DNA of 64,000 nt from an uncultured Thermodesulfobacteriota bacterium (GTDB lineage: Bacteria > Desulfobacterota > WTBG01 > CAIYCZ01 > CAIRTM01). Below the pieces are notes generated by a model that saw nothing but the letters and a program-made list of their open reading frames with translations, ran no database searches and was not told the origin of the DNA. Where the stretch lies: positions 7,403-71,402 of the forward strand of contig CAYLYF010000002.1 of NCBI GenBank assembly GCA_964387595.1. The letters run 5' to 3'. Positions 8,305-60,414 of the stretch are shown in pieces (within the stretch, counting starts at the first letter, position 1; every line of letters starts with the position of its first letter). The translations under genes were made by a program, and so were the position numbers.

Positions 8305-8358
8305 ATTTATTCTGATTCTGGTTGTGTTGGAATATATTTGTAATAATTTATGTTTAAA

Positions 8359-8632
8359 CCACGGCTTTAGAGCAGTTTCTTTTTCACTATAGCCTTAAGA
8401 CAGCTGAACCAACAGTTTAAACAGCTTGAACGGTTTAATCAAATTAAAAATCTCAAATAAAACTGAAAAGCAGTAATGCCAAACCTTTTACATTATTTAC
8501 CCTTTTTGTTCTTTTTCGTTTTGGCATTCATTGGGCATTTGAACTTTGGTCTTTGGCTTTTAGATTGCACCGTACCTACCGTTATGCCTAAACGTTATGG
8601 CTACAATATTTAAGAAAATGCTCTAGCCGTGG
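8359..8632 (+). mobile_element. MITE-like element family R2, copy 1 (~274 bp) with terminal inverted repeats CCACGGCTTTAGAGCAGTTT ... AAAATGCTCTAGCCGTGG
   Basis: A second, ~80% similar copy lies in inverted orientation at 17065-17326. The ends form ~12-18 bp TIRs. The element is non-coding. Confidence 0.55.
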
Positions 8633-8677
8633 ATAATTACAAAAAATGAAATCTGAAAGGTGTAGAATAGATATGAA

Positions 8678-8708
8678 TCACTCACTTCTAACTTCTCACT
8701 TCTCACTT
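8678..8708. repeat. Tandem heptamer array, (GTGARRA)x4 read on the minus strand (TCACTCACTTCTAACTTCTCACTTCTCACTT on plus)
   Basis: The array is read directly. It sits immediately 3' of the trkA stop codon, and the same motif recurs at 14545, 16168 and 17338. Confidence 0.5.
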
Positions 8709-8713
8709 ATTAA

Positions 8714-10078: not shown

Positions 10079-10144
10079 GATAGTTATCCTGTTGTTTTTT
10101 TAAATTTCAGATATTTGATTCTTTTACAATATTATTTAAAAATA

Positions 10145-10327
10145 TTAAAGACTATTTTTATCATATTTTTCATTTAGAATATCAAGCTCTTTTTCTATAT
10201 CAAGATCAGAATTGTTTTCAGCTTTCATCATAATCTGCATAATCTCAAGCTGAGGTATATGAGAGGTTGTTTTTATCAGAGCTTCGATTCTTTTAATTAT
10301 TGGACTGTCGAAGGTTTTTGGTCTCAT
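10145..10327 (-). CDS. Hypothetical small protein (60 aa)
   Basis: The ORF comes from the track only and no recognisable domain was found. Its position just upstream of trkA is compatible with a leader or small protein. Confidence 0.25.
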   Translation of the reverse strand: MRPKTFDSPIIKRIEALIKTTSHIPQLEIMQIMMKAENNSDLDIEKELDILNEKYDKNSL

Positions 10328-10678
10328 TGTTAACCTGTGTAATCTATAGTTTATAGTGGAATTAAAAGTGATAATTACAGGAAAGGTTTTTTGTGATCTT
10401 AGTCAAACAGTGTGAGTACATTATTTGCTTCGTTTGATATGTGTTCATTTATTCTTGCAAGCAGTTTGTGTTTACTGTCTTTTATATATCATTAGGGTTA
10501 AGATATCTACTCTTTATCTTTGATCTCTAACCTGTTTATTCAAATTATTGTTAACTTCAAACTTTATAAACAGAGGATTATTTATGGAGGGTCAATCCTT
10601 AAGTATTCACGTTTAAAGTAAGCAAGGTTGTTTGCTTTATGGAAAATATAGAAAAAATTATAAAAATTATTTTTATGT

Positions 10679-11070
10679 TTCGTCAATAAAATCTGTGGGT
10701 AACTTTTTAGTATTAACTAGAGAATACAAAATTAAAACAGTGGGTTGTCAATATAAACACCCCGTTTTTTTTTAGCGTTAACTTTTATTAAAGAACCTTA
10801 TTCAAAAGATGAACGTCAAATATAAAACCTTGAACGTCCAACATTGAACATCGAACTTCCAACGTCGAATGAAAACCTAGCACCTAAAATCAACCAATTT
10901 TGTTTGTTTTGTTGTTTTTTTCCATTCACCATTCGATGTTGAACGTTCGATGTTCGATGTTCATTTGTTTTTACGTCCACTGTTCATCTATTTTCAACCC
11001 GTCCGTTTGTGCCGTTAAAAGGATCTGTAGTGTAAATTGTTTTTTTACCCGCAGATTCTGTTGAAGAACC
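10679..11070 (+). mobile_element. MITE-like element family R1, copy A (~392 bp) with ~20-24 bp TIRs (TTCGTCAATAAAATCTGTGGGTAA ... TTACCCGCAGATTCTGTTGAAGAA)
   Basis: A near-identical copy lies at 16411-16807 in the same orientation. The element contains a long internal imperfect palindrome rich in GAACRT/CGATGTTC hexamers flanking a T-rich loop. It is non-coding. Confidence 0.6.
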
Positions 11071-11177
11071 ATTTTACAAGTATCTAATGTGCTGTGCTTT
11101 GTAGGATGCAGGCACATTATAACCTGTAGAGCCGGTAATTACCGGTCTATCGTCTGCTGCTGCTGAAAAGTATTTTG

Positions 11178-12266: not shown

Positions 12267-12583
12267 AAAATGTCCGTAAATATTTTAAGAATTAACTTGA
12301 GTTCTCTTATTAAAATACAATATCATTTGGCTATTTTCAAGCATACAACTATATATATTTAAAAATTAATGTCAACATATTTAAGAATAAAATATTTTAA
12401 ATGATATGATAAATCAATGAGTTAAAATTAATTATCTGTTTTTGTGGTTTAACTTTTTATCGTGCTATCGGAAGGTGATTTAACAACCGGTATTAGATTT
12501 GAAACGTTACGCAGAAGGATTATGTGATTTTTTTGTTTATCCTTAATGTTTACAGGTAATGAATTATTATACCTGATTGAATT

Positions 12584-13414
12584 TTAATTCTTAAATTTTG
12601 GGTCCAGGGCGTCCTGAAGGCCTTCACCCAGGAGATTGTAACCGAGCACGGTGATTAAAATAGCAAGTCCGGGAAAGAATGACAGCCACCATGCTATTTC
12701 GATATTTGCCTTGCCGTCTGTTAATATATTTCCCCAGCTGGGGGTTGGCGGCTGAACCCCGAGTCCTAAAAAGCTTAAGGAACTTTCGAGTAAAACAGCT
12801 GCTGCAACACCCAGTACAGCAGAAATAAATACCGGCGCAAGTGCATTCGGCAGAATATGAATAAATATTATTCTGAGATCGGAAGCACCCGATGCTCTGG
12901 CGCCAAGGACAAATTCCCGTTCTTTTAATGAGAGGAACTCTGCACGGACAAGACGGGCAACGCCCATCCAGGAGGTGAGACCGATTATCAGCATGATATT
13001 AAATATGTTTGGGCCTACAAACGCGATTACGGCAAGAATCAGAAAAAATCCGGGAATGCAGAGCATGATGTCCACAAAACGCATAATAACCATATCAATA
13101 TATCTGCCGTAATATCCGGCAAGTGCTCCAAGGGTGATCCCAATAATCGTTGATATCCCAACAGAAACAAAACCCACCACAAGAGATATTCTTGCACCCC
13201 ATATCATCCTGCTGAAAACATCCCGCCCCAGATCGTCTGTACCGAAGAAATGTGCAGCGGAGGGGGGGGCTAATATATTTTTAACATCAATATTTTTATA
13301 GTTATGCGGAGATATAACCGGGGCAAAAACCGCAATCATAAATAGCGCTGTGACTATTATAAGTCCTGATAAGGCCAGCCTGTTTTTAATGATTTTTTTA
13401 ATTAGCTTTTTCAT
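12584..13414 (-). CDS. Oligopeptide/dipeptide ABC transporter permease (OppC/DppC-like)
   Basis: The protein has six TM helices, an ABC permease EAA-like loop and the N-terminal extension typical of DppC/OppC. Confidence 0.85.
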   Translation of the reverse strand: MKKLIKKIIKNRLALSGLIIVTALFMIAVFAPVISPHNYKNIDVKNILAPPSAAHFFGTDDLGRDVFSRMIWGARISLVVGFVSVGISTIIGITLGALAGYYGRYIDMVIMRFVDIMLCIPGFFLILAVIAFVGPNIFNIMLIIGLTSWMGVARLVRAEFLSLKEREFVLGARASGASDLRIIFIHILPNALAPVFISAVLGVAAAVLLESSLSFLGLGVQPPTPSWGNILTDGKANIEIAWWLSFFPGLAILITVLGYNLLGEGLQDALDPKFKN

Positions 13415-13440
13415 TTTTAAATCAAAATAACTTTAACATC

Positions 13441-14439
13441 TTATTTAACTCTAATTCTGGGATCAGCAATGGCATAGCACATATCTGCAAGCATGTTTCC
13501 AAACATGGTCAGAAGTGATGTAATAAATAAAAGTCCCATGACTACGGGATAGTCCCGGGTCATGATTGCGTGATAAGAAAGCTGTCCCATTCCGGGGATG
13601 CCGAATATCTGTTCAAAAATGATTGATCCTCCGATAAGGCCGGGAACGGATAGTCCAAGAAGGGTAATGATCGGAAGTAGTGCGTTTCTTAAGGCATGTT
13701 TATAGATCACAGTTTTTTCAGAAAGCCCTTTTGCCCGTGCTGTGGTGATATAGTCGTTTCTAATGGTTTCAAGCATGCTGGATCTCATGTATCTTGACAT
13801 ACCGGCAAGTCCGCCGAATGCTGAGATGAAAAGAGGTAGAATTAAGTGATGTGCTTTATCAAAAAATCTGCCGATAAGGCTAAGTGACTCATAATTTAAT
13901 GATTTAAGACCTGAGATGGGCAGTAAATCTAAATTTACACCAAACAAAAGCATGAGTAAAAGTGCAAGCCAGAATCCTGGAGTCGCAAACCCGATAAATA
14001 CGGTTACGGTTGAAATACGGTCAAAAATTGAGTAGGGGCGGGTTGCTGAATATATACCTATGGGGATTGCAATTGTGAGTATGATAAAAATTGACAGCAG
14101 ATTTATAAGCAGGGTAACTGAAAGCCGTCGGTCAAAAAAAGGTGAATTTGAATCCCAAATTTTTTCAATAACCGGACGCGCGTCTGAAGAAAATGAATTC
14201 CCAAAATCAAATTTTACAATCCTTTTCAGCCACAAAAAGTACTGAGTTAAGATCGGTTTATCGAGACCATAATATTTTTCAAGCTTTTGCCGGGCTTCGG
14301 GTGTGATCTTAGGGTTCAGGTCGGTCATGATATCTGTTGGTTTACCCGGTGCAAGCTGGATAATAAAAAAGGTGATCAGGGTCACACCGATAAGGGTCGG
14401 TATCATTGATAACAGACGTTTTAATATATATAGGAACAT
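13441..14439 (-). CDS. Oligopeptide/dipeptide ABC transporter permease (OppB/DppB-like)
   Basis: Permease motifs are present. The start was chosen at [10 protein letters not shown], the typical OppB N-terminus. The track ORF extends 13 codons further, to 14478. Confidence 0.85.
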
Positions 14440-14544
14440 AGTTTGTCTTTTTGTTCTCTCACAGATGGCAGAGAACACGGGGGAAAATCGTTAATAGTTA
14501 ATTTTATTCCACACTCCGAAATCAAAATTCCACATTCTTATCAT

Positions 14545-14560
14545 CTCTCACTTTTCACTT
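14545..14560. repeat. Short heptamer array (GTGAAAA GTGAGAG on minus strand) overlapping the oppA-like stop codon
   Basis: Same motif family as at 8678, 16168 and 17338. This array is only ~2 units long. Confidence 0.4.
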
Positions 14561-16156
14561 AATCAATGTGTGCTTCTGCATTGATTTGGGTACATACCAT
14601 TTATGAAGGTTATAGCTTATACCGATCGGTTCCGGTTTGATATTTTTTATTCTCTTATGAACAATGGGGAGTGCATAGGGAACATATAGAAAAATATAGG
14701 GGACTTCCTCGGCAATGATTTCCTGAAATTTAAAGTACGCTTTTTTTCGTTCTTCCAGATCAAAGGTCCGCCGCCCTTTTTCAAGCAGTATGTCAATCTC
14801 TTTGTTTTTATAAGATATGAAATTAAACTCTTTTTCTGCTGTTTTACTGCTGTGCCAGATGTCATACTGGTCAGGATCAAGGCCGATTCCCCAGCCGAGC
14901 AGTACGGCTTCAAAACGCCTGGTATCAATACGTTCGTTTATGAAGGTAGACCATTCGAGTACCAGGATCTTTACCCTGATCCCGATCATCTCAAGCCGCC
15001 ACTGGATGATCGTTGCGGTTCGCAGACGCTGGGCATTTCCCTGGTTTGTAATAATGGTAAATTCAAAAGCTTTACCGTCTTTGTCAAGGATATTGTCACC
15101 GTCTGTGTCTTTCCATCCCGCTTCATTAAGAAGCTGTTTTGCTTTTTTAAAATTGTACGGATATTTTTTAACATCAGGATTATATGCCCAGGTATTGGGA
15201 ACATATGGACCTGTTGCTTCCAGCCCGAGTCCAAAAAGGATGCCGTCTATTATTTCTTTTTTGTCAATTGCATAAGCAATTGCCTGCCTGACCCGTTTAT
15301 CCTGAAAAGGGGGGTGCTTAAAATTAAATCCCAGATAAGTGTATCCCCGTGAAGGATATTTGTATTTTTGAAAATTATTTTTAAAATAATCTGAATGGGT
15401 CTGTCTGCTGTATTGAAGCGGGGTCAAAGACATCATGTCAATTGAGCCTGTCTGAAGCTCTAAAAACTGGGTTGAGATGTCAGGAATAATTTTGTAGACA
15501 TAATTATCCAGATACGGCCGGCCTTCAAAATAATTGGGATTTGATCTAAGGATCAATTTCTCACCGGACAGCCATTTTGTTAATTTAAAAGGGCCCAGTC
15601 CCAGGGGTTTCCGGGTTAACGGGCTTTTGGTAATATCTTTTCCTTCAAGAAGATGTTTGGGGAGCACGACCATATTCCCCCAGGTTGAAAGTGCCGGCGC
15701 AAAAGGTTTCTCATATGTTGCTTTAAAGGTATATTTGTCAATGACTTCCGCCTTTTTCACCTGCATAAAGTCACCGGAATAGGCAGTGGGAGTTTTAGGA
15801 TCGATTATTGTTTTAAAACCAAAATAGACGTCGTCTGCTGTAAACGGGACGCCGTCTTCCCAGACGATATCTTTTCTTAAATGAAAAATAAGGGTCAGGC
15901 CGTCTTTTGAGACTTCCCAGGACTCTGCCAGATCACCGGTCAGCGTCAGGTCTGTATCATATTTTACCAGACCGTTATAAATAAGACCGGAAATATCATG
16001 TGATGCACTGTCAGAGGCCAGCATGGGAATGAGGTTTGACGGTTCCCCGATGGATGCAACAACTAAAGCGTCACCGAATTGGCCAATGCTGTTTTGTGAA
16101 AGGACAGACAAAGGTGTTGTGCTAAGGATTATTATGATCAGTAATATTTTTTTCAT
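14555..16156 (-). CDS. ABC transporter substrate-binding protein, family 5 (OppA/DppA-like)
   Basis: The ORF is 533 aa from MKKILLIII (signal peptide) and has family-5 SBP architecture. The 17 extra codons in the track ORF (to 16207) are encoded by the heptamer repeat array and are probably not translated. Confidence 0.85.
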   Translation of the reverse strand: MKKILLIIIILSTTPLSVLSQNSIGQFGDALVVASIGEPSNLIPMLASDSASHDISGLIYNGLVKYDTDLTLTGDLAESWEVSKDGLTLIFHLRKDIVWEDGVPFTADDVYFGFKTIIDPKTPTAYSGDFMQVKKAEVIDKYTFKATYEKPFAPALSTWGNMVVLPKHLLEGKDITKSPLTRKPLGLGPFKLTKWLSGEKLILRSNPNYFEGRPYLDNYVYKIIPDISTQFLELQTGSIDMMSLTPLQYSRQTHSDYFKNNFQKYKYPSRGYTYLGFNFKHPPFQDKRVRQAIAYAIDKKEIIDGILFGLGLEATGPYVPNTWAYNPDVKKYPYNFKKAKQLLNEAGWKDTDGDNILDKDGKAFEFTIITNQGNAQRLRTATIIQWRLEMIGIRVKILVLEWSTFINERIDTRRFEAVLLGWGIGLDPDQYDIWHSSKTAEKEFNFISYKNKEIDILLEKGRRTFDLEERKKAYFKFQEIIAEEVPYIFLYVPYALPIVHKRIKNIKPEPIGISYNLHKWYVPKSMQKHTLIK

Positions 16157-16167
16157 TAGCAATGGCC

Positions 16168-16202
16168 GTGAAAGGTGAAAGGTGAGAAGTGAAGAGTGAG
16201 AA
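16168..16202. repeat. Tandem heptamer array (GTGAAAG GTGAAAG GTGAGAA GTGAAGA GTGAGAA) on the plus strand, 12 bp upstream of the oppA-like start
   Basis: Five tandem 7-mers are read directly. This is the longest copy of the motif family. Confidence 0.5.
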
Positions 16203-16410
16203 GACAAATATAATTAAATTTCATTTCGTTATTTCTACAGTTTTTTATTCTTTAAATAGTTTCTTAAACCCATAATCAGTGAGCGGACTTCGTTAATATT
16301 TTTGATGATATTTCCTGTCGTACAAAATTTCAAACGTTCAGATATGATTAGTTGAGTTTCCAGTTCAGAAAGTGACCCTAATGATATGTTTAAAAAGTAT
16401 AGAAATTCGC

Positions 16411-16807
16411 TTCGTCAATAAAATCTGAGGATAACTTTTCAGCACTTATTATAGAATACAAAGTTAAAACAGTTGGTTATCAATATAAACACCCTGTTTT
16501 TTTAGCGTTAACTTTTATTAAAGAACCAAATTCAAAAGATGAACGTCCAACATTGAACATCGAACTTCCAACGTCGAATGAAAACCAACCACCTAAAATC
16601 AACAGATTTTTTTTGTTTGTTTTGTTGTTTTTTTTCATTCATCATTCGATGTTGAACGTTCGATGTTCGATGTTCATTTGTTTTGACGTCCAATGCCCGT
16701 CCTGAGCCTAATCGAAGGGTTCATCTATTTTGCAACCAGTCCGCTTGTGTCTTGCAAAAGATCATTAATAAAGATTACTTTTTTACCCACAGATTTTGTT
16801 GAAGACC
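16411..16807 (+). mobile_element. MITE-like element family R1, copy B (~397 bp), flanked by a 9-bp direct repeat TAGAAATTC
   Basis: The copy is ~85-90% identical to copy A and has TIRs GCTTCGTCAATAAAATCTG ... CAGATTTTGTTGAAGACC. A putative target-site duplication TAGAAATTC lies immediately on both sides. Confidence 0.6.
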
Positions 16808-17064
16808 TAGAAATTCTTTATCCGATCTCCTTCCAGCACCTTCGCTAATATTGCTTGTAATAGATATAGCAGACCTTCATATCTGCGAAGTTAACCCATA
16901 TTCTTCTTCTTTTGGGAATGATGCTGTTAATTTATATAGTTTCTACCAGAGATACAGATTGCTTCCAAACATCCATTTCCTTGTGATTCATACATTTATG
17001 TCTAATAGTCTATACTATTAGAATATCAGAATCTTCACTGATTACCCATCCATTGCAATAATGG

Positions 17065-17326
17065 ATTAGAGCATTTTTATAACGTGTAGCCATATGTTTT
17101 AAGTGACGGCTGGTGAAGTTCAATCTAATGTCAAAAGCCAAAGTTCAAATGACAAATGAATGCCAAAAAAGAAAAAGCACAAAAAGGATAAATGAGTTTG
17201 GCATTGGTGTTTTTCAGTTTCATTTGACATTTTTAATTTGAACTTAAAATTTCATGTTTATCCGTTAAAACCGTTCAAACGGCAGTCCAACTATCCGAGG
17301 CTATAGTAAAACAGAAACTGCCCTAG
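17065..17326 (-). mobile_element. MITE-like element family R2, copy 2 (~262 bp), inverted relative to copy 1
   Basis: The reverse complement aligns along its length with 8359-8632, with TIRs CTAGGGCAGTTT ... AAAATGCTCTAATCC. Confidence 0.55.
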
Positions 17327-17337
17327 CTCCTTATCCG

Positions 17338-17362
17338 TCACTCTTCACTTCTCACTTTTCAC
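17338..17362. repeat. Tandem heptamer array (GTGAAAA GTGAGAA GTGAAGA GTGA on minus strand) immediately 3' of the AMMECR1 stop
   Basis: Read directly. Same family as at 8678, 14545 and 16168. Confidence 0.5.
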
Positions 17363-17367
17363 TACTT

Positions 17368-17934
17368 CTAAAATATCTCCGCAGAAAAAATATAAATTTC
17401 CATATCATCATCCTTCCAGGCATCCGATGGAAGACCGGCCTTATTGCAGGTCTGTGATAAAAAGGTTTCTTTGTCCCAGTTGTACTGCAAAGCTACCTGG
17501 GGCAGCAGGAGTCCGGAATAAGGGCCTTTGATCATCATAAGTCCATGTTTACCAACTTCTATCTCGCTTATTTCCTTTATCTGTTTCATAGGCGTTAAGA
17601 CAGACAGTTCAATATCAAGATCAGATAGTTCATCTTTTTCTAAGGAAGGAAATCTCGGGTCCTGAAAGGCTGCTGCAAGGGCCATTTCATTTATTGTTTC
17701 TGCAAGAGGTTTTACCGCATGGACATAGCCTATGCACCCTCTGAGCTTGCCACCTTTATGTAAAGAAACAAAGGCCCCTCTTTTTTCATTAAGCGTATCA
17801 GTTAAAGCTTTGGGTATGGATGGCGACTCATTACGCAGTTTTTTTTCAATAGCTGTTATTGCGATTTTATGGAGCTCATTTTTTTCATCTTCAGTAAGGG
17901 CTTTATCTATTGATGCTGTGGTTTCTTCATTCAT
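17368..17934 (-). CDS. AMMECR1 domain protein
   Basis: Conserved LRGCIGY, DPRFP and GLLLPQV motifs of the AMMECR1 family are present. The ORF is 188 aa. Confidence 0.85.
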   Translation of the reverse strand: MNEETTASIDKALTEDEKNELHKIAITAIEKKLRNESPSIPKALTDTLNEKRGAFVSLHKGGKLRGCIGYVHAVKPLAETINEMALAAAFQDPRFPSLEKDELSDLDIELSVLTPMKQIKEISEIEVGKHGLMMIKGPYSGLLLPQVALQYNWDKETFLSQTCNKAGLPSDAWKDDDMEIYIFSAEIF

Positions 17935-18338
17935 TGTATATTCCTTTGTTTCCTGATAATTATTAAACTTGTGTGTTGCAGTCAGGATATAATTTTTTAA
18001 TTAAATGATTAAATGATTAATTGAATTTTCAGTCAAGGGTTTTTTAGATAAATTATGAAGGATGGCTCAACTTCTGCTTGCAGGTCCTTTGTTTAGATTA
18101 AATTTGACTCAACGGACTTGCTTTAGGTTTTTTGTTCCAAGAGCGTAATGATCGTGCTATAATTTATTTATATATGTAATATTAGCTACTTATGAAGCAT
18201 TAACATATCTCTGAATATCATGCAAAAAAATTGCGGGAGTATTGGTTTTTTTTATTTTTTAAATGAAAGATTAACGCAGACAATTTTCTGACCGAAAAAT
18301 CTAATTATAGTAAATATCTTTCAGGAGGGCGTTTTACG

Positions 18339-18690
18339 ATGCGTAAAATATTAATAATGTGTTCAAAGGGAACATATTGCCTTGTTTTAATTCTGTGCAT
18401 GTCGGCGATCCTGTTAACTCTGCCTGAAACGCCACAGGCACAGCTTGCTGATTCTGCCTGACCAATGTTCAGACATGATGTGAGGCGCCACCGGTCTTAC
18501 CTCTGCTTTAGGCACAGAGGTGGGTATAAGAAAAATGTATTTTTGATACTGATAATCCCGCGTATCTGTGGCGTTTTCAGACCGGGGGAGCCATTGAGTC
18601 ATCTCCCGCAATCGATGAAGATGGAACCGTACGCCGAAGTAATATATGTTTCACAAGTTAAGACCGGGATTTTATTTTAACTTTTTAGTG
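18339..18690 (+). pseudogene. Remnant of a secreted PQQ-repeat (beta-propeller) protein gene
   Basis: After an AGGAGGG RBS and ATG comes a 40-aa signal-peptide ORF. It is followed in a shifted frame by WPMFRHD (a typical mature N-terminus of PQQ-repeat proteins), then by TGGAIESSPAIDEDGTV (a PQQ repeat) in another frame, then a stop. Only ~350 bp remain. Confidence 0.5.
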
Positions 18691-19140
18691 TTTAATTGAT
18701 TAAAAATGTATATATCAAAAAATGAATTAGATAATCTTATTATCATATGTGTCAATTTTTTTAAAATAATATGAAACGAATAGAGTGAAATGATTAGAGA
18801 TGGATCAAAACAAGATATGCATAACTGTTGACTCAGATCTTGAATATCTTATCCCCGGTTTTTTATTAAGAAAAAAAGAGGATGTCGATTCCATAATGTT
18901 ACTAATTGAAAAGGTTGAATTTGATTAAATTAGAATTCTGGGACACAGTATGAAAGGTTCCGGGGTAGGGTACGGCTTTGACAAGATAACCGAAATGGGT
19001 GCTTTAATAGAGGTTTTTTTGAAAGAGAAAAATGGTGAGAAAATAAAAAAGGTTGTTAATGATCTTTGTGTTTTTTTAGATAATATCAAGGTGGTTTATG
19101 AATAGTTTTTTTTTATAAATTTAAGTGCTGTTATTTTAAT

Positions 19141-20079
19141 TTAGTCCTCAAACATCGCATCGACAAAATCTTTTGCATTAAATTCCCGGAGATCGTCCAT
19201 CTTTTCACCGATACCAATATATCTGACCGGGACATCAATTATCTCAGATACGGCTACGATTACACCGCCTTTTGCCGTACCGTCAAGTTTTGTAAGTGCT
19301 AATCCTGATACATCTATTGTTTCTTTAAAAACTTTAGACTGTGACACGGCATTTTGACCGGTAGTGGCATCAAGGACTAAAAGTGTTTCATGAGGCGCCT
19401 CCGGATGTGCTTTTTTAATCACTTTATATATTTTTTTAAGTTCTTCCATTAAGGGGGCTTTTGTTTGCAGTCTGCCTGCTGTATCGATTATAAGAACATC
19501 TATATCATTGGCTTTTGCTGATTTTAAAGCATCGAATGCTACTGCAGAGGGATCGGCCCCATGTTTATGTTTTATAACTTTGCATCCGACCCGGTCACCC
19601 CAGATCTCAAGCTGTTCGATTGCGGCTGCCCTGAAAGTGTCTGCAGCGGCAAGCATAACTGAATGCCCTTCATTTTTAAATTTATTTGCGAGTTTTGCAA
19701 TAGTTGTTGTTTTTCCGGTTCCGTTTACGCCGACAGCTAATATGGTAAAAGGTTTACTGTTTTTATTGATAACCAGTTTTTTATCGTGTTTTTGAAGTGT
19801 TTCCAGAATATTATCTTTCAGCACCTCTTTTAGCTTATTCGGATTTTTAAGTTCATTCCGTTTTACTTTAAAACGGACCTCATCCATAAATTTCATTACG
19901 GAGTTAATGCCCAGATCAGATGAGATCAGGATCTCTTCAAATTTGTCCAGTATTTCATCATTTATCTCTCTTTTTCCGAGAGTCGCTTCGTCTAAACGAC
20001 GTATTACCGTCTGATGTGTTTTTGCCAGTCCGTTTTTCAGCCTGCTGAAAAATCCGGGCTTCTTCTCATTATTATTCAT
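19141..20079 (-). CDS. ftsY: Signal recognition particle receptor FtsY (short form, NG domain only)
   Basis: The ORF has GVNGTGKTTT P-loop, DTAGR and TKLDGTAKGG motifs and is 312 aa. Confidence 0.95.
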   Translation of the reverse strand: MNNNEKKPGFFSRLKNGLAKTHQTVIRRLDEATLGKREINDEILDKFEEILISSDLGINSVMKFMDEVRFKVKRNELKNPNKLKEVLKDNILETLQKHDKKLVINKNSKPFTILAVGVNGTGKTTTIAKLANKFKNEGHSVMLAAADTFRAAAIEQLEIWGDRVGCKVIKHKHGADPSAVAFDALKSAKANDIDVLIIDTAGRLQTKAPLMEELKKIYKVIKKAHPEAPHETLLVLDATTGQNAVSQSKVFKETIDVSGLALTKLDGTAKGGVIVAVSEIIDVPVRYIGIGEKMDDLREFNAKDFVDAMFED

Positions 20080-20100
20080 GTAAGAACCAGAAAATGGAGG

Positions 20101-23100
20101 TTAATTTAGGTTAACAGAAACTATCTTTGACACACCTTTTTCCTCCATGGTTACACCATAAAGTGAATTAGCGGCCTGCATGGAAAGCTTATTGTGTGTT
20201 ACGATCAGGAACTGAGATCGTTCTGCCATTTTATGGAGATGAGAAATGAATCGTCCAATGTTTGAATCATCCAGTGGCGCATCAATTTCATCCATTAAGC
20301 AAAATGGACTGGGTTTTGTCAGAAAAATTGCAAACATCAGAGAAATAACCGTTAGCGCTCTTTCACCGCCTGAAAGAAGATCAAGGCTCTGCAGCTTTTT
20401 GCCCGGAGGCTGTGAGAAAATATCAATACCGGTTTCAAGAATGTTGGATTCATCAGTGAGCTGCATGTATGCTTTACCGCCGTTAAAAAGAAGCGGAAAT
20501 AGCTGTTTGAAATGATTATTGATTTCATTAAAGGTTTCAGAGAATTTCTGCCGGGTTATCTTGTTTATTCTTGTGATGACGTTCTGCAGCGAATCTATGG
20601 ACTGATGCAAATCATCAGACTGTTCTGTTAGAAAGGTGTACCTTTGTTCAAGATCTTCAAATTCTTTAGCAGCGCCAAGGTTAACATCACCGATATTATC
20701 AAGACGTTTCTTTAGCTTTTCAAGGTGCTCTTTTGATTCTTCTTCGTTAAAATTATTGTCGTCCTGTGCCGGCGGTAAGGCGGCAAGGTCCATTGCGTAC
20801 TTATCAGACAGGTCATCTTTAAGATGGTCCGTATGGATGGTTGCCTCGTTCAGCTTAAGTTCAATATCCCGGACTTTGGGTTCTATCTCATCCCAGCGCG
20901 TTCTTAAATTCTTTAAAAGTTCATCGTCGGATTTAACTATTTCTTCAAGTGAATGCTCATTTCTTCTTTCCTCATCAATCCGTTTATTCAGTTCCTGACT
21001 TTTCATTATTTTGGATTGAAGTTGATTTTTCGTCCCTTCAATATTATTTGAAAGTGTACCGGTGTTTGATTCCAGTTTATTTTTTTCATCTTTCAAACTG
21101 TTGATCTTTGATTTTGATGAAATGAGTCCATTGTTCAGCCGGTCAATATCAGTAAGCAGGTTTTCCTTTTTTTGTTTAACCGATGCCAGTAATATCCTTA
21201 ATTCGGTGTGATCGGTTTCCAGACTTAACAGTGATTCTTTCTGAGCATTTTCTGAAAGGGTGAGCTCGGCAAGATAGGACTGTTTGTTTTGTTCTTCTTT
21301 TTCGATTGAATCTTTGTCCAGCTCGAGTTTCTTAATGTCCCTTTGATGATTTTCAAGCTGGTTTGTGCTTTCAGCCGCGTCTTTTGCCAGTAAATTTAAT
21401 TTTTCTTCTTCCAGCTGGTTTTCTCGAATAAGCTGTTCATCAATTGTCTTTTCCTGAACAAGCATGATATTGAGTTCATTTTGCTCTCTTGAGAGTTGTT
21501 CTAAAAGTAAAGTTGCACTGTTTAAGTCTTTTTCAATATTTTCTTTTGTTTCATTAACAGTATTAAATCTTGTTTCAAGCTGACTTAGCGATTCAGTGTA
21601 TTCTCTTATCTCTCTGTTTCTTTTTAATATTCCGGTACCAGAACTTGTTGTCGATCCCCCGGTGATGGTACCTTTTTCATCGATCAGATCACCTTCTAAA
21701 GTAACGAAGGTACATTTGCTTGAAATGTTTTCTCTAAGGCTGATCGCAGTTGTTATGTTATCGCAAAGATAGACATCAGATAAAAGTGAATCGATAACTT
21801 TTCCATAATCATCTTTTGCTTTTATAAGTTTTAAAAGGGGAGTGCAGCCTGTAATTTCCGGATTGTTCAGAGAAGGGCCACCGGCAGACGGGGTTAGAAA
21901 AGAGATCTTGCCGTTTTTCTGACTTTTTAAGTAATCAATTGCTTTTAAACCGTCTTCGGTAGAGCTGAAGATCAAGGCCTGCAGCTTTCTGCCAAGTGCT
22001 GCTTCAAGGGCTGTTTCGTGTTTTGGTTTGGTTACAATAAAATCTGCAAGTAGACCGACGATACCGTTTATTTCGTCATGGTTATCTTTATGGGCCTGCA
22101 TTACAGTTCTTACGCCTTCATCAAAACCTTCAAGATTGTTCTGAAGTTCTGTAAGAGAGTTTAAGTGCGCCTTCTTGTTTCCGATTTCATCTTTCAGATC
22201 GTTATATACCGTTGTCTTTTCATTGAGAGAGGTTTTTAATGATTGAATTTTGTTTGATTGTGAATTTATGCTTATATTCTTTTGTTCAAGACTATCAGAG
22301 GTTTCATTTACTTTATTCTTTTGATTAATGATCCTGACTTTCAGCTCTAAATGGTTTGATATACTTATATTATTTTCTTCTTCAATTTTTTTAAGCTTCT
22401 GGCTTATCTCTTCCTGGAGCCTGGTGTTCAGTTTAATTGAGTTGTTGATCTCTGTTCTTTTAAGGGTTATCTGCATCAAGTCATCTTTTTCAATTCCGAT
22501 CTTTTCCTGAATCGCAGTTAGACTATTCTTTGAGACGGAGAGATATTCAGACGAACCGTTAAAATCACTTTCAAGAGAACTTATTTTCTGCAGGATAGCT
22601 TCAAGATCGTTTTTCCTTGTTATTATTTCATTATCAATATTTTCCAGATCATCAGAAAGTTCTTTTATTGTCTGGCTGCTTTTTATGATCAATGAATGTG
22701 TGTTTTGAAGTTCTCTTTCATTGAGCTGGATACTGCTTTCCTCATTTTGAATAGATTCTTTATGCGAATAATAATCCTGCTGCAGTTGCTCTATTTTCTT
22801 ATGGAGCTCTTCAAGATCAAGGCGGTTTTTTTCAAGGTTTGCCTCTGTTGAATTTCTATTTGCAGAGAGGTTGATCTCTTCATCACGATATTTAGTTAAC
22901 TGCTCCTTTAATTCCCGGGTTGATTTGTTAAGATTTTTTAGTCTTAAAGCGGTAAGCAGCAGTTCGATATTTCTGATCTCTTCTGTTATGGTCCGGTGTC
23001 TTTTAAGCCTTTTAACCTGGAGACTCAGTGTATGCATCTGGATCTTAATCTCATTTAAAAGATCATTTAAACGATGAAGGTTATTCCGGGTAGAATTCAT

Positions 23101-23694: not shown

Positions 23695-24065
23695 TTACAA
23701 AACCTCATGTATGATATTTATATTGTTTGCGTAACTGACTGATTAAACAATATATATTTTTTTATTATATTTCAGATTGTTTGTCGGGAAATTTTGCTTA
23801 ATCGTATCAGAGAAAAATACTAGTGTAAAGAAAAAAACACAATATATTGTTGTCCAAACAACCAATATTACCACCTGTTGTATGTGCTTATTTTTATATA
23901 ATCATTTAAAATAATTGAAAACAGCTTATAATTTATGGTTTTGATGATTTTAATTATTTTAATTAGTAATAATTTAATCTGTATGCTATTTTCTTACTAA
24001 GAATGAAGTATATTAATACAGCTATTTATCACTTTAACCTATTGAAATATGTTTGGAATTTAAAA

Positions 24066-25522: not shown

Positions 25523-26194
25523 ATGGTAACAATAAAAAATAAAAAGCCTTCCCATGTTTTTGAAGTAAACGACTGTGCCATAATCACCCGGATGGGCGGT
25601 GTAGGGACTGCGATAAATCTTAGAGAATTGAAGGAAAGACTTATCAGCTGTTCAATTGACTGTTTATATTATCATTTCTGTGAAACCCTTATTCGTCCTA
25701 CATTTGATAACCCTGAATATAGAAATGATTTTGCCCTGTGGTCTGCTTATAAATTAAGGGATAGAGTCCTGGCAGAACGCCTTGGAATTATTAACCCATA
25801 CAGTTTTGATGATTTGGAAGGTTTAAGAGAAAGGGTGTTAGAAATTATAGACGAGCGTCTAAGCAGCCTTAATTATATACCTTCTGTTCCAAAAGGTGAT
25901 GAGTTTATTTTTATGCGGGCCGCAACTGTTGTTTTTGATACTGGTATTGTATTACACCAGCCTGAAGATCTTTTTTTAAAACTGCCTTTAATGAGCAGAA
26001 GTACGATTTATTATCACTTTATGGAAGCAAGGAGACGTACTCAGGACAGGGTAGATGATTTTACGTTCTGGATAAAGTTTCATCCTGAAAAAAATCAGCA
26101 AATAATTGAAGAATTAGCAAAAATTGATTTCTATTTTTTAAATTTAAATGAGCTGAAAACGGTCCTGATCGATACACTTAAAAATATCCATTAA
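25523..26194 (+). CDS. Conserved hypothetical protein (223 aa), co-directional and adjacent to the treT-like gene
   Basis: No motif was recognised and there is no HAD DxDGT signature. It is tightly packed, with a 6-bp gap, ahead of the GT4 gene. Confidence 0.5.
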   Translation: MVTIKNKKPSHVFEVNDCAIITRMGGVGTAINLRELKERLISCSIDCLYYHFCETLIRPTFDNPEYRNDFALWSAYKLRDRVLAERLGIINPYSFDDLEGLRERVLEIIDERLSSLNYIPSVPKGDEFIFMRAATVVFDTGIVLHQPEDLFLKLPLMSRSTIYYHFMEARRRTQDRVDDFTFWIKFHPEKNQQIIEELAKIDFYFLNLNELKTVLIDTLKNIH

Positions 26195-26200
26195 ACGGTT

Positions 26201-27463
26201 ATGATGAAACCAAAAACATTAAAAGATTATAAAAAAATTGCAGGAAAAATTGCGATCTCACAGCTGGAACAGCTAAGTCAGAATCTAAAAGGGGCAAAAG
26301 TTGTTCATGTAAATTCAACCCGTGAAGGCGGCGGCGTTGCTGAGATACTTAACTGGATGATCTCTTTAATGAACGATCTGGGTCTTAATGCCAGTTGGGA
26401 AGTAATCGAGGGTAATGAGAAATATTTTGATGTAACCAAGGCTTTTCATAACGGTATGCAGGGAACTCCGATCAGGCTGACCGGTGAGATGATAAAGAAT
26501 TATGAAGATACTCTAAATACAAATTTTAAACGTTTACAGCCGGTACTTGAAGAGGCTGATTTTGTGTTTATTCATGATCCGCAGCCGGCAGCTTTTCTTG
26601 ACATGTGTCCCAATAGAAAAGGGAAGTGGGTCTGGAGATGTCATATTGATTCAAGTAATCCGTCAAGAGAGGTTTGGAAATATTTAAGAAGTAAGGTTGT
26701 TAATTATGATGCAAGTATATTTTCAATGCCGACTTTTGCCCAGCCTTTACCCCACCCGCAGTTTGTGATTGCACCCAGTATTGACCCTTTAAGTGAAAAG
26801 AACTGTGAAATTAATAAAAAGGAAATTAAGGAGACATTAAAGAAATATAATATACCTGATAATGTTCCAATACTCACCCAGGTATCAAGGTTTGATAGAT
26901 TCAAGGATCCTTTGGGAGTGATCGAGGCATTTAATGAACTGACCAAGACAATCCCTGCTGAACTTGTTCTGGCCGGAGGGAGGGCTACGGATGATCCGGA
27001 AGGGCAGGTCGTTTTAGAAGAAGTACAAAAAGCAGCAGCTGATAATAAACACATACATGTATTGATGCTGCCCAGTGATGCTCACCGGACTATAAATGCA
27101 TTACAGCGGGCATCGACTATTATTATTCAGAAATCGATTCAGGAAGGTTTCGGGCTTACCGTTACAGAAGCACTGTTAAAAGAAAAACCTGTGATCGGCG
27201 GCAATGTGGGGGGGATAAAGCTTCAGCTCCATAACTATTATACCGGTTTTCTTGTTGAAACCCCGGAAGGAGCTGCTTTAAGGATCAGAGAGCTTCTCCA
27301 TGATAATGAAAAAATTAAAAGAATGGGGAGAACGGCAAAACAGTTTGTAATCGAAAACTTTTTGCTCACCCGGCATCTCAGGGAATACCTCACTCTTCTC
27401 GTCGGTTTAAAGTGCAATCTTACAAATTATGTACTTACCGAATCAAAGGATTTCAACTCATAA
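26201..27463 (+). CDS. treT: Retaining GT4 glycosyltransferase resembling trehalose glycosyltransferring synthase TreT
   Basis: Motifs shared with archaeal/bacterial TreT as recalled from memory include VHVNSTxxGGGVAEIL, WRCHID, PSIDPLSEKN, TQVSRFD, REGFGLTVTEA and GGIKxQ. The ORF is 420 aa. Confidence 0.65.
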   Translation: MMKPKTLKDYKKIAGKIAISQLEQLSQNLKGAKVVHVNSTREGGGVAEILNWMISLMNDLGLNASWEVIEGNEKYFDVTKAFHNGMQGTPIRLTGEMIKNYEDTLNTNFKRLQPVLEEADFVFIHDPQPAAFLDMCPNRKGKWVWRCHIDSSNPSREVWKYLRSKVVNYDASIFSMPTFAQPLPHPQFVIAPSIDPLSEKNCEINKKEIKETLKKYNIPDNVPILTQVSRFDRFKDPLGVIEAFNELTKTIPAELVLAGGRATDDPEGQVVLEEVQKAAADNKHIHVLMLPSDAHRTINALQRASTIIIQKSIQEGFGLTVTEALLKEKPVIGGNVGGIKLQLHNYYTGFLVETPEGAALRIRELLHDNEKIKRMGRTAKQFVIENFLLTRHLREYLTLLVGLKCNLTNYVLTESKDFNS

Positions 27464-27478
27464 TAAAATTTTATACTT

Positions 27479-28963
27479 ATGGTTAATCCACAAAAAAGGC
27501 TTGTTATTGTTTCTAACCGTCTGCCCGTTATTATTGATAAAATTAACGGCGGCTGGGAAGTCAAGGAAGGGTCCGGCGGTCTGGTCACAGCTCTTGCTCC
27601 TGTACTGAGGAACAGGGGCGGTGTATGGATCGGATGGCCCGGTACTGTTATGAATGATGAGGTTGAGACACTTCTTACTTCGGAAACCAGGGACACCGGT
27701 TATCAGTTGAAACCGGTAACACTGACCTCGTATGAAATTGATAAGTATTATCATGGATTTGCCAATGAAATTATTTGGCCGCTTTTTCATGATCTGCAGT
27801 CAAGATGTAACTTTGATCCTGAGTTCTGGCAGGTTTATCAGGCTGTTAATAAAAAATTTGCTGAAGTGATTCTTCAAAATACGAAGACGGATGATTATAT
27901 ATGGGTTCATGATTATCAGTTGATGAATGTTGCAAAAGAAATGCGTGTTTCTAATCCGCAAATCAAGGTCGGATTTTTTATGCACATTCCTTTTCCTTCC
28001 CTTGATATTTTTCTAAAACTGCCATGGAGACATGAACTGCTAAGTTCACTTCTTGAATATGATCTGATCGGTTTTCAAACGATGCGGGACAGAAGAAATT
28101 TTATACAGTGTGTAAAGACTCTTGTAAAAGATGTTGCCGTGCAGGGTAAGGGACAGGTACTAACAGTTCTGTCCAGAGATAGAAAAATAAAAGTCGGTCA
28201 TTTCCCCATAAGTATTGATTATAAATATTTTGTTGATAAGACAGCAACCCAAGAGGTGTCAGACTGTGCCTGGTTTATACATGAAAATTTAAATGATCGC
28301 CAGATTCTACTTGGAATTGACAGACTTGATTATACGAAGGGAATCATCGAAAGACTGAAAGCTTTTGAAAATGCTTTAATCAGATATCCTGAATTAAGAG
28401 GTAAGGCATCATTTATACAGATCGTTGTACCCAGCAGAACCCGAATAACCGAGTATAAGACCCTGAGATCTGAAATAGAGGAGACCGTGGGAAATATCAA
28501 CGGCAGGTTTACAAAATACGGATGGGTGCCTATTCATTATATATTCGGCAGCCTCGATTTTTATGAACTGCTTGCATATTATAAGTCTTCTGAAATTGCT
28601 GTTATCACCCCGCTTAAAGACGGTATGAATCTGGTGGCAAAAGAATACTGTGCCTGCAGTCTTGATGGGAATGGCGTGCTGATCTTAAGCGAATTTGCCG
28701 GTGCTTCTGCACAGCTGCACCGGGGCGCCATTATGGTTAATCCCTATGACGTAGATAAGGTGGCGGATGCTATCTATCAAGCATTTAAAATGAATGCTGA
28801 TGAAAAAATAACCCGAATGAGAAAAATGAGACACTCAATTAAAAAACAGGATGTCTTTTGGTGGGTGGACTCTTTCCTGCAGGCGGCTTTTACGGAAAAT
28901 CTTAATAACTTTCCTGTCCTTGAACATTATGATTATATGCCTCAAATCGAAATTTCAACATAG
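27479..28963 (+). CDS. otsA: Alpha,alpha-trehalose-phosphate synthase (GT20, OtsA-like)
   Basis: N-terminal VSNRLP...GGLVTAL...WIGWPG is present and GT20 motifs run throughout (HDYQL, IDRLDYTKG, PLKDGMNLVAKEY). The ORF is 494 aa. Confidence 0.85.
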   Translation: MVNPQKRLVIVSNRLPVIIDKINGGWEVKEGSGGLVTALAPVLRNRGGVWIGWPGTVMNDEVETLLTSETRDTGYQLKPVTLTSYEIDKYYHGFANEIIWPLFHDLQSRCNFDPEFWQVYQAVNKKFAEVILQNTKTDDYIWVHDYQLMNVAKEMRVSNPQIKVGFFMHIPFPSLDIFLKLPWRHELLSSLLEYDLIGFQTMRDRRNFIQCVKTLVKDVAVQGKGQVLTVLSRDRKIKVGHFPISIDYKYFVDKTATQEVSDCAWFIHENLNDRQILLGIDRLDYTKGIIERLKAFENALIRYPELRGKASFIQIVVPSRTRITEYKTLRSEIEETVGNINGRFTKYGWVPIHYIFGSLDFYELLAYYKSSEIAVITPLKDGMNLVAKEYCACSLDGNGVLILSEFAGASAQLHRGAIMVNPYDVDKVADAIYQAFKMNADEKITRMRKMRHSIKKQDVFWWVDSFLQAAFTENLNNFPVLEHYDYMPQIEIST

Positions 28964-41828: not shown

Positions 41829-42079
41829 GCACGATACAAATGTAAACAATTCAGATACCAATATTTTTAAATTTTGTCAAGAAAATTATTATGTTACGAC
41901 TTATTGGGGATAAATTTTTGTCTTATACAACCGTCAGAATAAAGGCCTTGTCTCAGTAAATATATGTTTAACGGCAAAAAGTTCTATTTTTTATAAAATG
42001 TTTCCTTTAATAAACCGTATTCTATTTTTAAGTAGCTAAAAAAACATAACAAATTGTCTGGCATAAGTTTTGCTTAATA

Positions 42080-42424
42080 TTGCGGGTTAAGTCTGATGAT
42101 AAGAACATTTTAGAGCAGGAACAAACAGAGATAAACCTAAGCGGTTCAGGAATAAAATTTCATACCAGCGATAATCTGAAAACCGGTGATTTTCTGGACG
42201 TTTAAATGGTGCTTCCCATATCCTCCGGGGTTTTGATCGAGTTTATTGCAGAGGTTGTCAGGGTTGTCCGGTCTACAGATACGATGTTAAACGGTGATGA
42301 CTGTGCAAATGAAATCGCTGTGAAATATGCCGCGATCAATGAAGATGACCGGGAGATGATTATTCGGTATACTTTTAAGAGACAAAGAGAACTGCTGCGA
42401 GCATTTGAAAGCAATTCAGCTTAG
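42080..42424 (+). pseudogene. PilZ-domain protein gene interrupted by an in-frame TAA (nonsense) at 42203-42205
   Basis: The ~41-codon N-terminal part (TTG start) contains NLSGSG (the DxSxxG-like PilZ motif). The downstream 72-aa ORF (42206-42424), in the same frame, has the YcgR/PilZ-like C-terminus (RYTFKRQRELLR). Confidence 0.45.
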
Positions 42425-44482: not shown

Positions 44483-44797
44483 TTATTTAGAGAGAAGCTT
44501 ATTTGTTTCTGAGTGACGTTTTGCAAGAGTATCAATTATGGTTTTTGCAAGCTTAGGGGAGGTGTCTAAAACAGTGTCCAGATCATCACAATTAAAAACC
44601 TTTACATGGCTTTTTCCAATTGAACGAACAGTAGCGCTTCGTTTTTCTCTTAAAATTGCACTCATCTCTCCAAAATATTCATCGGGATTTGAGATCCTTT
44701 CGATCTCTGTACCTGATTTTGAGACCAGTAAACCATATTCAGCTTTTACCATTTGAAAGATCTCGTCTCCTTGGTTCCTTCCTCTATTAAGGTCTCA
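44483..44797 (-). pseudogene. Truncated cyclic-nucleotide-binding domain gene fragment (C-terminal half only)
   Basis: Contains the phosphate-binding cassette FGEMSAILxxxRSATV. The reading frame opens only ~15 codons upstream of the first Met and the N-terminal beta-strands of the cNMP domain are absent. Confidence 0.5.
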
Positions 44798-46911: not shown

Positions 46912-46964
46912 ATTTAATCGAATAATTTATTTGAAGAGATAATAAATAGTTCTGGAGACTCTGG

Positions 46965-47444: not shown

Positions 47445-47489
47445 AATTTAATTTTAACAAATCGTATTTCCCTAATTGGAGGCTGATAA

Positions 47490-48081: not shown

Positions 48082-48735
<654 letters not shown>

Positions 48736-60387: not shown

Positions 60388-60414
60388 GGTTTCTCCAAAA
60401 AAGTAAATTTTAAA

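Follow-up and report, generated by a model that had tools for sequence, protein, structure and literature searches.

In Shigella, Yersinia pestis, Bordetella pertussis and Burkholderia mallei, all of them niche-restricted, insertion sequences (IS) have expanded and motility and chemotaxis functions are among the first to be lost; the young pseudogenes of such pathogens arise by nonsense mutation, frameshift, deletion or mobile-element insertion, and repeats lie at their rearrangement junctions. In the Desulfovibrio ectosymbionts of the protist Trichonympha (ZnDsv-02 and Rs-N31), which have genomes of 1.4-1.6 Mb, 86-188 pseudogenes and a demonstrated host, genes for signal transduction (response regulators among them), chemotaxis and flagella are preferentially missing or pseudogenised (PMC7608387, PMC5322295). 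The present analysis concerns a 64-kb stretch of DNA from an uncultured Thermodesulfobacteriota bacterium (GenBank assembly GCA_964387595.1, contig CAYLYF010000002.1), hereafter the window, together with ~16 kb of flanking DNA from the same genome that was also readable (~80 kb in total). Several of its chemosensory, phosphorelay and cyclic di-GMP (c-di-GMP) related genes are broken or gone, and the window probably records a recent, lineage-specific gene loss biased to behavioural signalling rather than a general, drift-driven degradation.

As in the Trichonympha ectosymbionts, which belong to the same broad phylum-level group, signalling and motility genes have been lost and housekeeping genes kept. 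Unlike the genome-wide results available for those symbionts, the present case is known from 64 kb and no host is known; it also differs from them in showing neither rate acceleration nor a shift in GC content, and in having miniature inverted-repeat transposable elements (MITEs) as its mobile elements. The niche-restricted pathogens differ from it as well, since the window has no autonomous IS, deletions dominate among its lesions and its setting is environmental metagenomes.

About 16 genes are lost or broken in the window, ~14 of which are signalling or motility-associated. Five separate signalling loci are hit: a chemosensory (Che) pathway, two genes for PilZ-type c-di-GMP effectors, a hybrid-kinase/histidine phosphotransfer (Hpt) phosphorelay with an HDOD gene, and a regulator binding cyclic nucleotide monophosphates (cNMP). 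One of the two lost PilZ-type genes adjoined those for an MshE-type pilus/secretion ATPase, a ParA-like ATPase and an HDOD protein. Among the lesions are multiple deletions, both small and large, as well as nonsense mutations and frameshifts and a single rearrangement; the majority of the losses are plain deletions, and the only gene interrupted by an element encodes an intervening-sequence protein (IVP). Sister lineages retain every comparable gene that could be examined. An earlier reading of the window from its letters and open reading frames (ORFs), hereafter the sequence-only reading, had described signalling and motility genes eroding beside intact housekeeping genes and listed fragments of cheA, cheB, a PilZ gene, a cNMP-binding gene and a CheC/X-like gene. 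All of these are present and their lesions could be mapped, and the asymmetry between signalling and housekeeping genes within the window is stronger once the scars in the gaps are counted. To that list are now added an Hpt pseudogene, a cheW relic, the loss of cheY1, the MITE-disrupted IVP gene and micro-relics of HDOD and PilZN genes.

The lesions are not peculiar to one assembly. Contigs L001, L003, L004, L005 and L007 agree with the window at 100% identity, and the same full identity is seen with JGI contig Ga0222639_1000034 (sample 3300023262), with contigs of another JGI sample and with ENA assemblies; the ENA contig L006 differs from it at 2 of 21,920 bases (99.99% identity), and contig L002 by eight bases and one gap over 13 kb (99.92% identity). 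Every stop, frameshift and gap discussed here is also present in independent assemblies from different samples, and all three stop codons end intact genes of the window (TAA 30, TAG 9, TGA 6), so assembly error and recoding are excluded as sources of the broken genes. An alternative genetic code or read-through was considered and rejected on the same count of terminators, and broken genes traceable to assembly errors had been part of what the sequence-only reading named as able to overturn it. Three marks of a unitary pseudogene were sought. An intact syntenic orthologue in relatives was found for the Hpt gene, for the PilZN, MshE, ParA and HDOD genes, for cheA, cheW, cheX and cheB, and for the cNMP, PilZ and IVP genes; for a further relic, with a PQQ-like blade, the homologue search returned none. 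Disabling lesions reproducible in independent data were found, and relaxed purifying selection was seen in the Hpt gene and in cheR, cheD and cheY2, the other relics being too short. Proteins of the window are indexed in 42-62 metagenome assembly blocks, a figure that is neutral as to host. The species was absent among the GTDB species representatives scanned, the nearest of which are metagenome-assembled genomes (MAGs) labelled delta proteobacterium, Thermodesulfobacteriota or Syntrophales, with at most 56% identity in the MiaB-like protein.

Non-coding stretches of about 1 kb (17935-19140, 10080-11177) had been taken by the sequence-only reading as part of the erosion. The long gaps are real, being confirmed at 10079-11177, 16154-17367 and 17935-19140, and what they contain proved to be deletion scars, relics and a junction. 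Because relatives hold intact clusters at the corresponding places, the long gaps are seen to be scars of lost signalling clusters, and the long non-coding stretches of the window are made of ancestral spacers, micro-relics of deleted genes and MITEs. Gap 8305-8713 is explained by a MITE. Pfam searches of six-frame translations found no gene relics in gaps 1779-2249, 12267-12583, 23695-24002 and 53533-53927, which look like ordinary spacers. Rfam returned just a tRNA-Val and chance-level matches, at gathering thresholds over the whole window and at permissive thresholds over three gaps.

The interval 17935-19140, between AMMECR1 and ftsY, holds no intact gene and no known RNA by ORF and Rfam searches, and a promoter and terminator scan of 17900-19200 gave matches no better than those in shuffled sequence. 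It is made up of the following parts, compared with the relatives L209 and L210 on the AMMECR1 side and L207 and L208 on the Hpt side:

17935-18050, minus strand: upstream region of AMMECR1, whose homology to L209 and L210 stops at ~18050 (blastn)
18051-18801, no strand: lineage-specific junction segment, with no DNA homology to L209 or L210 on the AMMECR1 side or to L207 or L208 on the Hpt side (blastn)
18339-18680, plus strand: putative relic of a gene for a secreted PQQ-like beta-propeller, from ORFs and a single blade match
18800-19105, plus strand: Hpt pseudogene, from intact 102-aa homologues and a nonsense codon

The Hpt gene is complete apart from one nonsense codon, codon 43 (CAA to TAA, 18926-18928). 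Its homologues P0001 (85% identity) and P0002 (69%) are intact at 102 aa and have Gln at the position of the stop, and the window copy has further substitutions at conserved positions (D16Y, G56V). Compared with the sister contig L208, which is 96% identical in DNA and 98.6% in FtsY, the Hpt gene differs at 15 codons nonsynonymously and at 5 synonymously, the corresponding figures for the adjacent ftsY being 2 and 5; polarisation was possible for 12 of the nonsynonymous changes, and 8 of these arose on the window branch, some of them at conserved positions. In L207 the order is HDOD, a hybrid histidine kinase of 740 aa and Hpt, followed by ftsY-smc on the other strand. The C-terminus of the kinase lies directly upstream of an intact Hpt gene in L208, and homology to the window starts exactly at the Hpt start. 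Since such a close sister keeps both, the partner hybrid kinase of Hpt and the HDOD gene must have been lost from the window lineage very recently, with Hpt itself now decaying.

The neighbour of AMMECR1 in the relatives is a VanZ-like gene and not ftsY, which marks 17935-19140 as a rearrangement junction too, and segment 18051-18801 is where a rearrangement or deletion joined AMMECR1 to Hpt-ftsY. Within it, the sequence-only reading had noticed a PQQ-repeat relic. A relic is indeed there, and its assignment as PQQ-like depends on one blade. An ORF with a signal peptide stops at a TGA (18459-18461) where the Trp of a WPMFRHD motif would be expected; at least two frameshifts follow, and then one recognisable blade, YLWRFQTGGAIESSPAIDEDGTV, at 18563-18631. 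This blade matches PQQ-like propeller blades in PDB entries 3HXJ and 7EVF with an independent E-value of ~0.002 per blade, the Pfam match is weak (PF13570, E=0.032), and the stitched relic used as query returned no full-length homologue. On the AMMECR1 side, an AT-rich block of ~60 nt (17990-18050) is kept in L209 and L210 and the spacer around it is not; the block may be a regulatory site.

The gap between plsX and trkA could be compared with close relatives found through OppC, L209 (91% identity) and L210 (87%):

10079-11177, minus strand: plsX-trkA deletion scar, from gene order in L209 and L210, tblastn relics and DNA alignment

Both relatives have four genes from plsX to trkA, encoding a PilZN-PilZ protein (288 aa), a MshEN/T2SSE ATPase (888 aa), a ParA-like ATPase (~401 aa) and an HDOD protein (293 aa). 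The cluster replaced in the window amounts to about 5.8 kb, and by the DNA alignment with L209 its removal took three deletions or more (about 0.5, 0.3 and 4.8 kb). Two micro-relics were found by tblastn, HDOD residues 272-293 at 10402-10467 and PilZN residues 159-181 at 10545-10614; the scar otherwise consists of ancestral spacers and a MITE, and Pfam searches of its six-frame translation found nothing further. As L208, at 96% DNA identity, keeps an intact Hpt gene, and L209, at ~91% protein identity, keeps the four plsX-trkA genes and the IVP gene, these events are recent.

The chemosensory operon was reconstructed with more distant syntenic relatives, L008 and L011. In these, a gene with two cNMP-binding domains stands beside the MiaB-like gene, and the strand opposite to it has the operon cheY-cheA-cheW-cheR-cheD-cheY-cheX-cheB. 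The corresponding part of the window reads:

42060-42424, plus strand: relic of a PilZ-domain gene, from Pfam and a syntenic orthologue
44489-44776, minus strand: relic of a regulator with two cNMP-binding domains, from tblastn with the L008 and L011 orthologues and Pfam
45255-45947, plus strand: cheA relic, frameshifted and with an internal deletion, matching a 902-aa orthologue at about residues 555-816
45872-46075, plus strand: cheW relic, of which residues 101-168 are left, fused to the cheA relic
46108-47876, plus strand: cheR, cheD and cheY2, open ORFs with full-length matches to relatives, within the dead operon
47866-48060, plus strand: cheX relic, with residues 1-38 (47866-47979), a weak C-terminal match and an internal deletion
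48082-48735, plus strand: cheB relic, with residues 1-18, 156-244 and 238-341 kept in different frames

A functional Che pathway would need a CheA with Hpt, dimerisation, ATPase and CheW-like domains, together with CheW, and the window has no such set: the cheA relic is down to part of the dimerisation domain and the HATPase domain, every Hpt domain and P5 having gone, the cheW relic is without its first 100 residues, and cheY1, found upstream of cheA in the relatives, is missing altogether. In cheB, residues 19-155 (the REC domain) are deleted, the methylesterase domain is frameshifted and the active-site stretch GASTGG is cut to ATGG. The fragment first described as CheC/X-like has an L011 orthologue that Pfam assigns to CheX (PF13690). 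The window-unique changes in the still open cheR, cheD and cheY2 number 69/166, as against 62/228 in neighbouring housekeeping genes (odds ratio 1.9, p=0.003). The cNMP relic represents the C-terminal 94 residues (~148-241) of a 246-aa protein whose N-terminal domain is deleted. The PilZ relic (39.9 bits in Pfam, cut-off 22.5) corresponds to the last ~115 codons of a two-domain gene of ~294 aa and has an in-frame TAA at 42203-42205; its orthologue beside the PHP gene in L011 has 294 aa and is 48% identical.

Two further observations belong to this region. The CheA of L008 (4661-8275, minus strand) is intact and has 1,204 aa, compared with 902 aa in L011; in its N-terminal part a Hpt-like motif, FHTLKGE/FHTIKGA, was seen by eye to be repeated several times, which suggests several Hpt domains, and the L008 che cluster contains no receptor gene. 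To judge from its predicted layout, this CheA is closer to a multi-Hpt, ChpA-type kinase than to the CheA of a flagellar system. In the window, the cheB relic and htrA are separated by a gene (48764-49282, minus strand) for a 172-aa DUF3368, weakly PIN-like protein, which has no counterpart there in L008 or L011 and beside which a partner antitoxin gene was not apparent.

Outside the affected loci the window looks healthy. Full-length genes with complete Pfam domain sets were found for ffh, tkt, trkAH, plsX, ftsY, smc, pheST, rplT, rpmI, infC, thrS and ligA, and likewise for lptD, folC, trpEGDCBA, htrA, pcm and the trehalose genes, so that the integrity of housekeeping genes claimed by the sequence-only reading is borne out. 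One item of its erosion list has to be withdrawn, namely the oligopeptide transport operon without ATPase genes:

12584-16153, minus strand: oppA-oppB-oppC, all three intact

The same order, oppA-B-C followed by plsX and without ATPase genes, is present in L209, L210 and L211, and Pfam found no ABC_tran relic in the spacer 12267-12583. The absence of the ATPases, being shared by these relatives, is the ancestral state and not decay. Comparison with relatives, which the sequence-only reading had put forward as a check, has thus had two outcomes, the signalling losses being lineage-specific and the opp arrangement ancestral.

Rates and composition were likewise ordinary. In a relative-rate test of AMMECR1, OppA, OppB, OppC, PlsX and TrkA (2,144 sites, a small sample), 62 changes were unique to the window and 55 to L209 (p=0.58). 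The GC content of the window is ~0.38, compared with 0.376 in L209 and 0.343 in L210, and its intact coding density is 84%; relics occupy 3.6 kb and MITEs 1.0 kb, together about 7% of the window. Neither accelerated protein evolution, within the six-protein sample, nor an AT shift with low coding density was therefore found. Given the excess of changes in Hpt and in cheR, cheD and cheY2 and its absence from the six intact genes, selection appears to be relaxed on the affected genes only.

The sequence-only reading had also recognised two families of MITEs, and both are confirmed by their terminal inverted repeats (TIRs), target-site duplications and empty sites in L209. With the cassette in which two of the copies are nested, they are placed as follows:

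8367-8626, minus strand: MITE B copy 1 (B1), in the trkA-trkH spacer; empty site in L209 CACGGCTAAAAGCCGTGG
10677-11070, plus strand: MITE A copy 1 (A1), 394 nt, ~84% identical to copy 2, with shared TIRs
16175-17362, minus strand: IVP cassette, with 25-nt inverted repeats at 16175-16199 and 17338-17362 and two nested MITEs
16409-16807, plus strand: MITE A copy 2 (A2), 399 nt, inside the IVP gene
17066-17326, minus strand: MITE B copy 2 (B2), ~260 nt, within the 5' portion of the IVP cassette, CTAA being the target; empty site in L209 GGAAGCTAAATAATT

Both families are short and non-coding and have TIRs, imperfect and of ~25 nt in A, of ~15 nt in B (CTAGAGCAKTTT). A perfect 9-bp target-site duplication, TAGAAATTC, encloses A2 (16400-16408 and 16808-16816); the reading frame of the IVP gene resumes exactly beyond the element, and the L209 gene is uninterrupted. 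The duplication around A1 is imperfect only. B1 and B2 duplicate CTA(A/G), both CTAA sites are empty in L209, and the trkA-trkH spacer, 409 nt long in the window, is shorter in L209 (232 nt) and in L210 (79 nt). Target-site duplications combined with an empty site in the relative were thus found for A2, B1 and B2 and establish that the MITEs have been mobile; all four window copies are lineage-specific insertions. No transposase gene or autonomous IS was found in the 64 kb. Among bacterial MITEs, those that descend from IS5-type elements make a duplication either of a YTAR/CTAA target or of 9 bp. Family B, with its CTA(A/G) duplication at CTAA, and family A, with its 9-bp duplication and ~25-nt TIRs, both below 400 nt and non-coding, are like these as they are generally described. 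Family A is unlike them in having a long internal hairpin whose arms elsewhere flank IVP (Avd-like) genes.

Beyond the two copies of each family in the window, further MITE B copies occur at the junction of contig L002 and in L092 (95% identical to B2), and a metagenome scan returned relatives of MITE A, ~81% identical, with at least 8 distinct flanks, several contigs ending inside the element. The tetranucleotide correlations of the contigs bearing MITE A (r=0.94-0.97) overlap with both the range for chunks of one genome (0.95-0.99) and the value for a different species (0.96). In two of the three MITE B insertions examined the element is centred in a short palindrome: B1, whose L209 site reads CACGGCT-AAA-AGCCGTG, and L092 (229-491), where the palindrome as inferred is TTAAGCCT-AA-AGGCTTAA. 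MITE B may therefore target small CTAA-containing hairpins. Contig L002 (ENA ERZ27315617 k141_39382) tracks the window from 30079 down to ~17116 and departs from it inside MITE B (junction at window 17062-17116); beyond the junction, its positions 13021-20939 carry a 114-aa ORF, an aldehyde:ferredoxin oxidoreductase gene and two sigma54 activator genes, and L003 ends where L002 departs. The junction would be either a MITE B recombination in a co-existing strain or a repeat-induced chimera.

The gene struck by A2 is a 23S_rRNA_IVP pseudogene (PF05635, an Avd-like four-helix bundle; 83.4 bits, cut-off 33.8) at 16235-16991, split into halves at 16235-16408 and 16808-16991 and carrying a frameshift and stops. 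Its L209 orthologue is intact, of 116 aa and in the same position, and the cassette is not there in L210, a distribution that suggests its insertion as a unit. The inverted repeats of the cassette, which stands between AMMECR1 and oppA, consist of GTGAGAA/GTGAAGA heptamers, and the same motif occurs beside MITE B1 (8677-8707) and in the L209 spacer (1980-2110, 2585-2625). Genes of this family are also found in rRNA intervening sequences, and their relation to the Avd protein of diversity-generating retroelements (DGRs) has been discussed (PMC10053308). Like those of rRNA intervening sequences, the IVP gene of the window sits between inverted repeats; unlike them it lies between protein-coding genes and not in rRNA. 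A DGR was considered for this Avd-like gene and rejected, as neither a reverse transcriptase among the window ORFs and Pfam matches nor a template/variable repeat pair was found, the window repeats being MITE copies with ordinary mismatches and indels.

The core of MITE A (10826-10972 and 16538-16685) forms a hairpin with arms of ~45 nt built of 7-nt TGAACATCGAACATCGAACGTTCAACATCGAATG-like units, and this internal stem folds better than expected (z=-4.1 for A1 and -4.4 for A2, about -4 for the core); a similar hairpin within MITE B was looked for and rejected (z=-0.8 and +0.4). A 25-mer from the hairpin arm recurs in metagenome contigs that number more than 119 and span a GC range of 0.30-0.63. 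An IVP (PF05635) ORF lies within 400 nt of it at 18 of 119 loci, the gene being intact in L140 (2400-2890), and 51 of 122 arm sites have an inverted partner, with loops that are bimodal in length, ~60-120 nt where no gene is present and ~405-556 nt where there is one. From the nearness of the arms to IVP ORFs and from these two loop sizes, MITE A-type hairpins may be decayed IVP gene cassettes that were flanked by inverted repeats. Further loci with the arm motif were noted in L148 (7040-7310 and 11540-11790), and L146 (1060-1290) has a tandem array of 21-nt units from the same motif.

Some intact genes of the window deserve mention in their own right. The trp operon (59200-61194) is ordered trpE-G-D-C-B-A and contains no trpF; 27 nt separate trpC, which encodes an indole-3-glycerol-phosphate synthase domain only (259 aa), from trpB. 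An intact cluster at 25523-28963, of DUF5752, TreT-like GT1 and OtsA-like GT20 genes with an adjoining gene for a double-Usp protein, has by its predicted families the look of a module for trehalose or compatible solutes. The 436-aa protein encoded at 30649-31959 (minus strand) has as its sole significant Pfam match a C-terminal PTS-HPr-like domain (residues 335-400, E=4e-8), an unusual architecture, and its gene adjoins one with CarboxypepD_reg repeats.

Taken as a recent loss biased to behavioural signalling, the pattern could have come about in a simple way. Selection on surface sensing, taxis and pilus-linked functions would have been relaxed in the window lineage, ordinary deletion-biased mutation would now be removing the genes of the relaxed modules, and purifying selection on the remaining genome would have stayed normal. 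The two MITE families transposed into the region over the same period. Several points weigh against this account. No obvious pseudogenes were noticed in the ~16 kb of flanks, a response-regulator GGDEF gene with its GGEEF motif is intact, so are the sigma54 activators on the alternative contig, and elsewhere in the genome there may be further che, pil or fla loci that are intact. Since a single operon accounts for five of the broken genes, there are about five independent loci and not sixteen events. The ancestral adjacency of the histidine kinase and Hpt to ftsY was deduced from two relatives only, and the che comparison, and with it the timing of che decay, draws on distant ones (53-56% identity in the neighbouring MiaB-like protein). 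A lifestyle cause of the losses, finally, is a matter of pure inference.

Of the other explanations, a pruning of redundant paralogous signalling modules, with lifestyle unchanged and the spare copies clustered in this window, survives best, although we regard it as unlikely. Desulfobacterota commonly hold several Che systems and many c-di-GMP components; the lost CheA would be of an atypical, multi-Hpt type from a cluster without a receptor gene, and other nearby signalling genes are intact, as such pruning would have it. It accommodates poorly the disappearance of five independent loci within 64 kb in a short time, spanning several pathway types at once, when the sisters kept all comparable genes that could be examined.

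A general, drift-driven reduction in a host-restricted or obligately partner-dependent lineage, with a population collapse, weak selection everywhere and signalling genes as the first to go, comes nearest to the interpretation of the sequence-only reading, which spoke of niche restriction and early reductive evolution, and it too looks unlikely. The bias towards signalling and motility does fit the Desulfovibrio ectosymbionts of termite-gut protists (PMC7608387), mobile elements have been active, and about 7% of the window is taken up by relics or MITEs. Set against this, amino-acid changes on the window branch are not in excess in the six intact proteins, there is no AT shift relative to relatives, and the trp and folC biosynthesis, lptD envelope and transport genes are all intact; the coding density of 84%, which that reading had proposed as a gauge of reduction, is ordinary for the group and matches that of free-living Desulfovibrio (83-84%; PMC7608387). 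An artefact of assembly or sequencing, of chimeric contigs, or of a non-standard code or programmed read-through is scarcely credible: L002 does leave the window exactly inside MITE B and could be a repeat-induced chimera, but the same lesions stand in JGI and ENA assemblies of different samples, they are mainly kilobase-scale deletions with micro-relics and not single-base errors, TAA, TAG and TGA all end intact genes, and the Hpt gene carries an excess of missense changes too.

A recent loss of behavioural signalling genes, as preferred here, has practical consequences. The long intergenic regions of such MAGs are better annotated as deletion scars and pseudogenes than as regulatory DNA, and open cheR, cheD and cheY2 ORFs should not be taken as evidence of chemotaxis. 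Loss of signalling genes of this kind is a fresh example of an already known process. A wider claim, that all the behavioural modules of the lineage (chemosensory, c-di-GMP effector, pilus-ATPase and phosphorelay) are in the course of being dismantled while purifying selection acts normally on everything else, is possible and should be held as doubtful. If true, the dismantling would amount to "behavioural streamlining", adaptive or neutral, of an anaerobe that lives freely, unlike symbiont-style decay, and the graded series of co-occurring sisters from L210 through L209/L207 and L208 to the window would allow the order and tempo of network loss to be followed stepwise. Were the pattern genome-wide, a natural time series of sensory-network loss would be at hand in this population and the close relatives that share its metagenome series, which could show in what order modules go, by which types of mutation, and whether mobile elements drive the loss or accompany it; the value of the case would lie in the still normal look of selection on the remaining genome.

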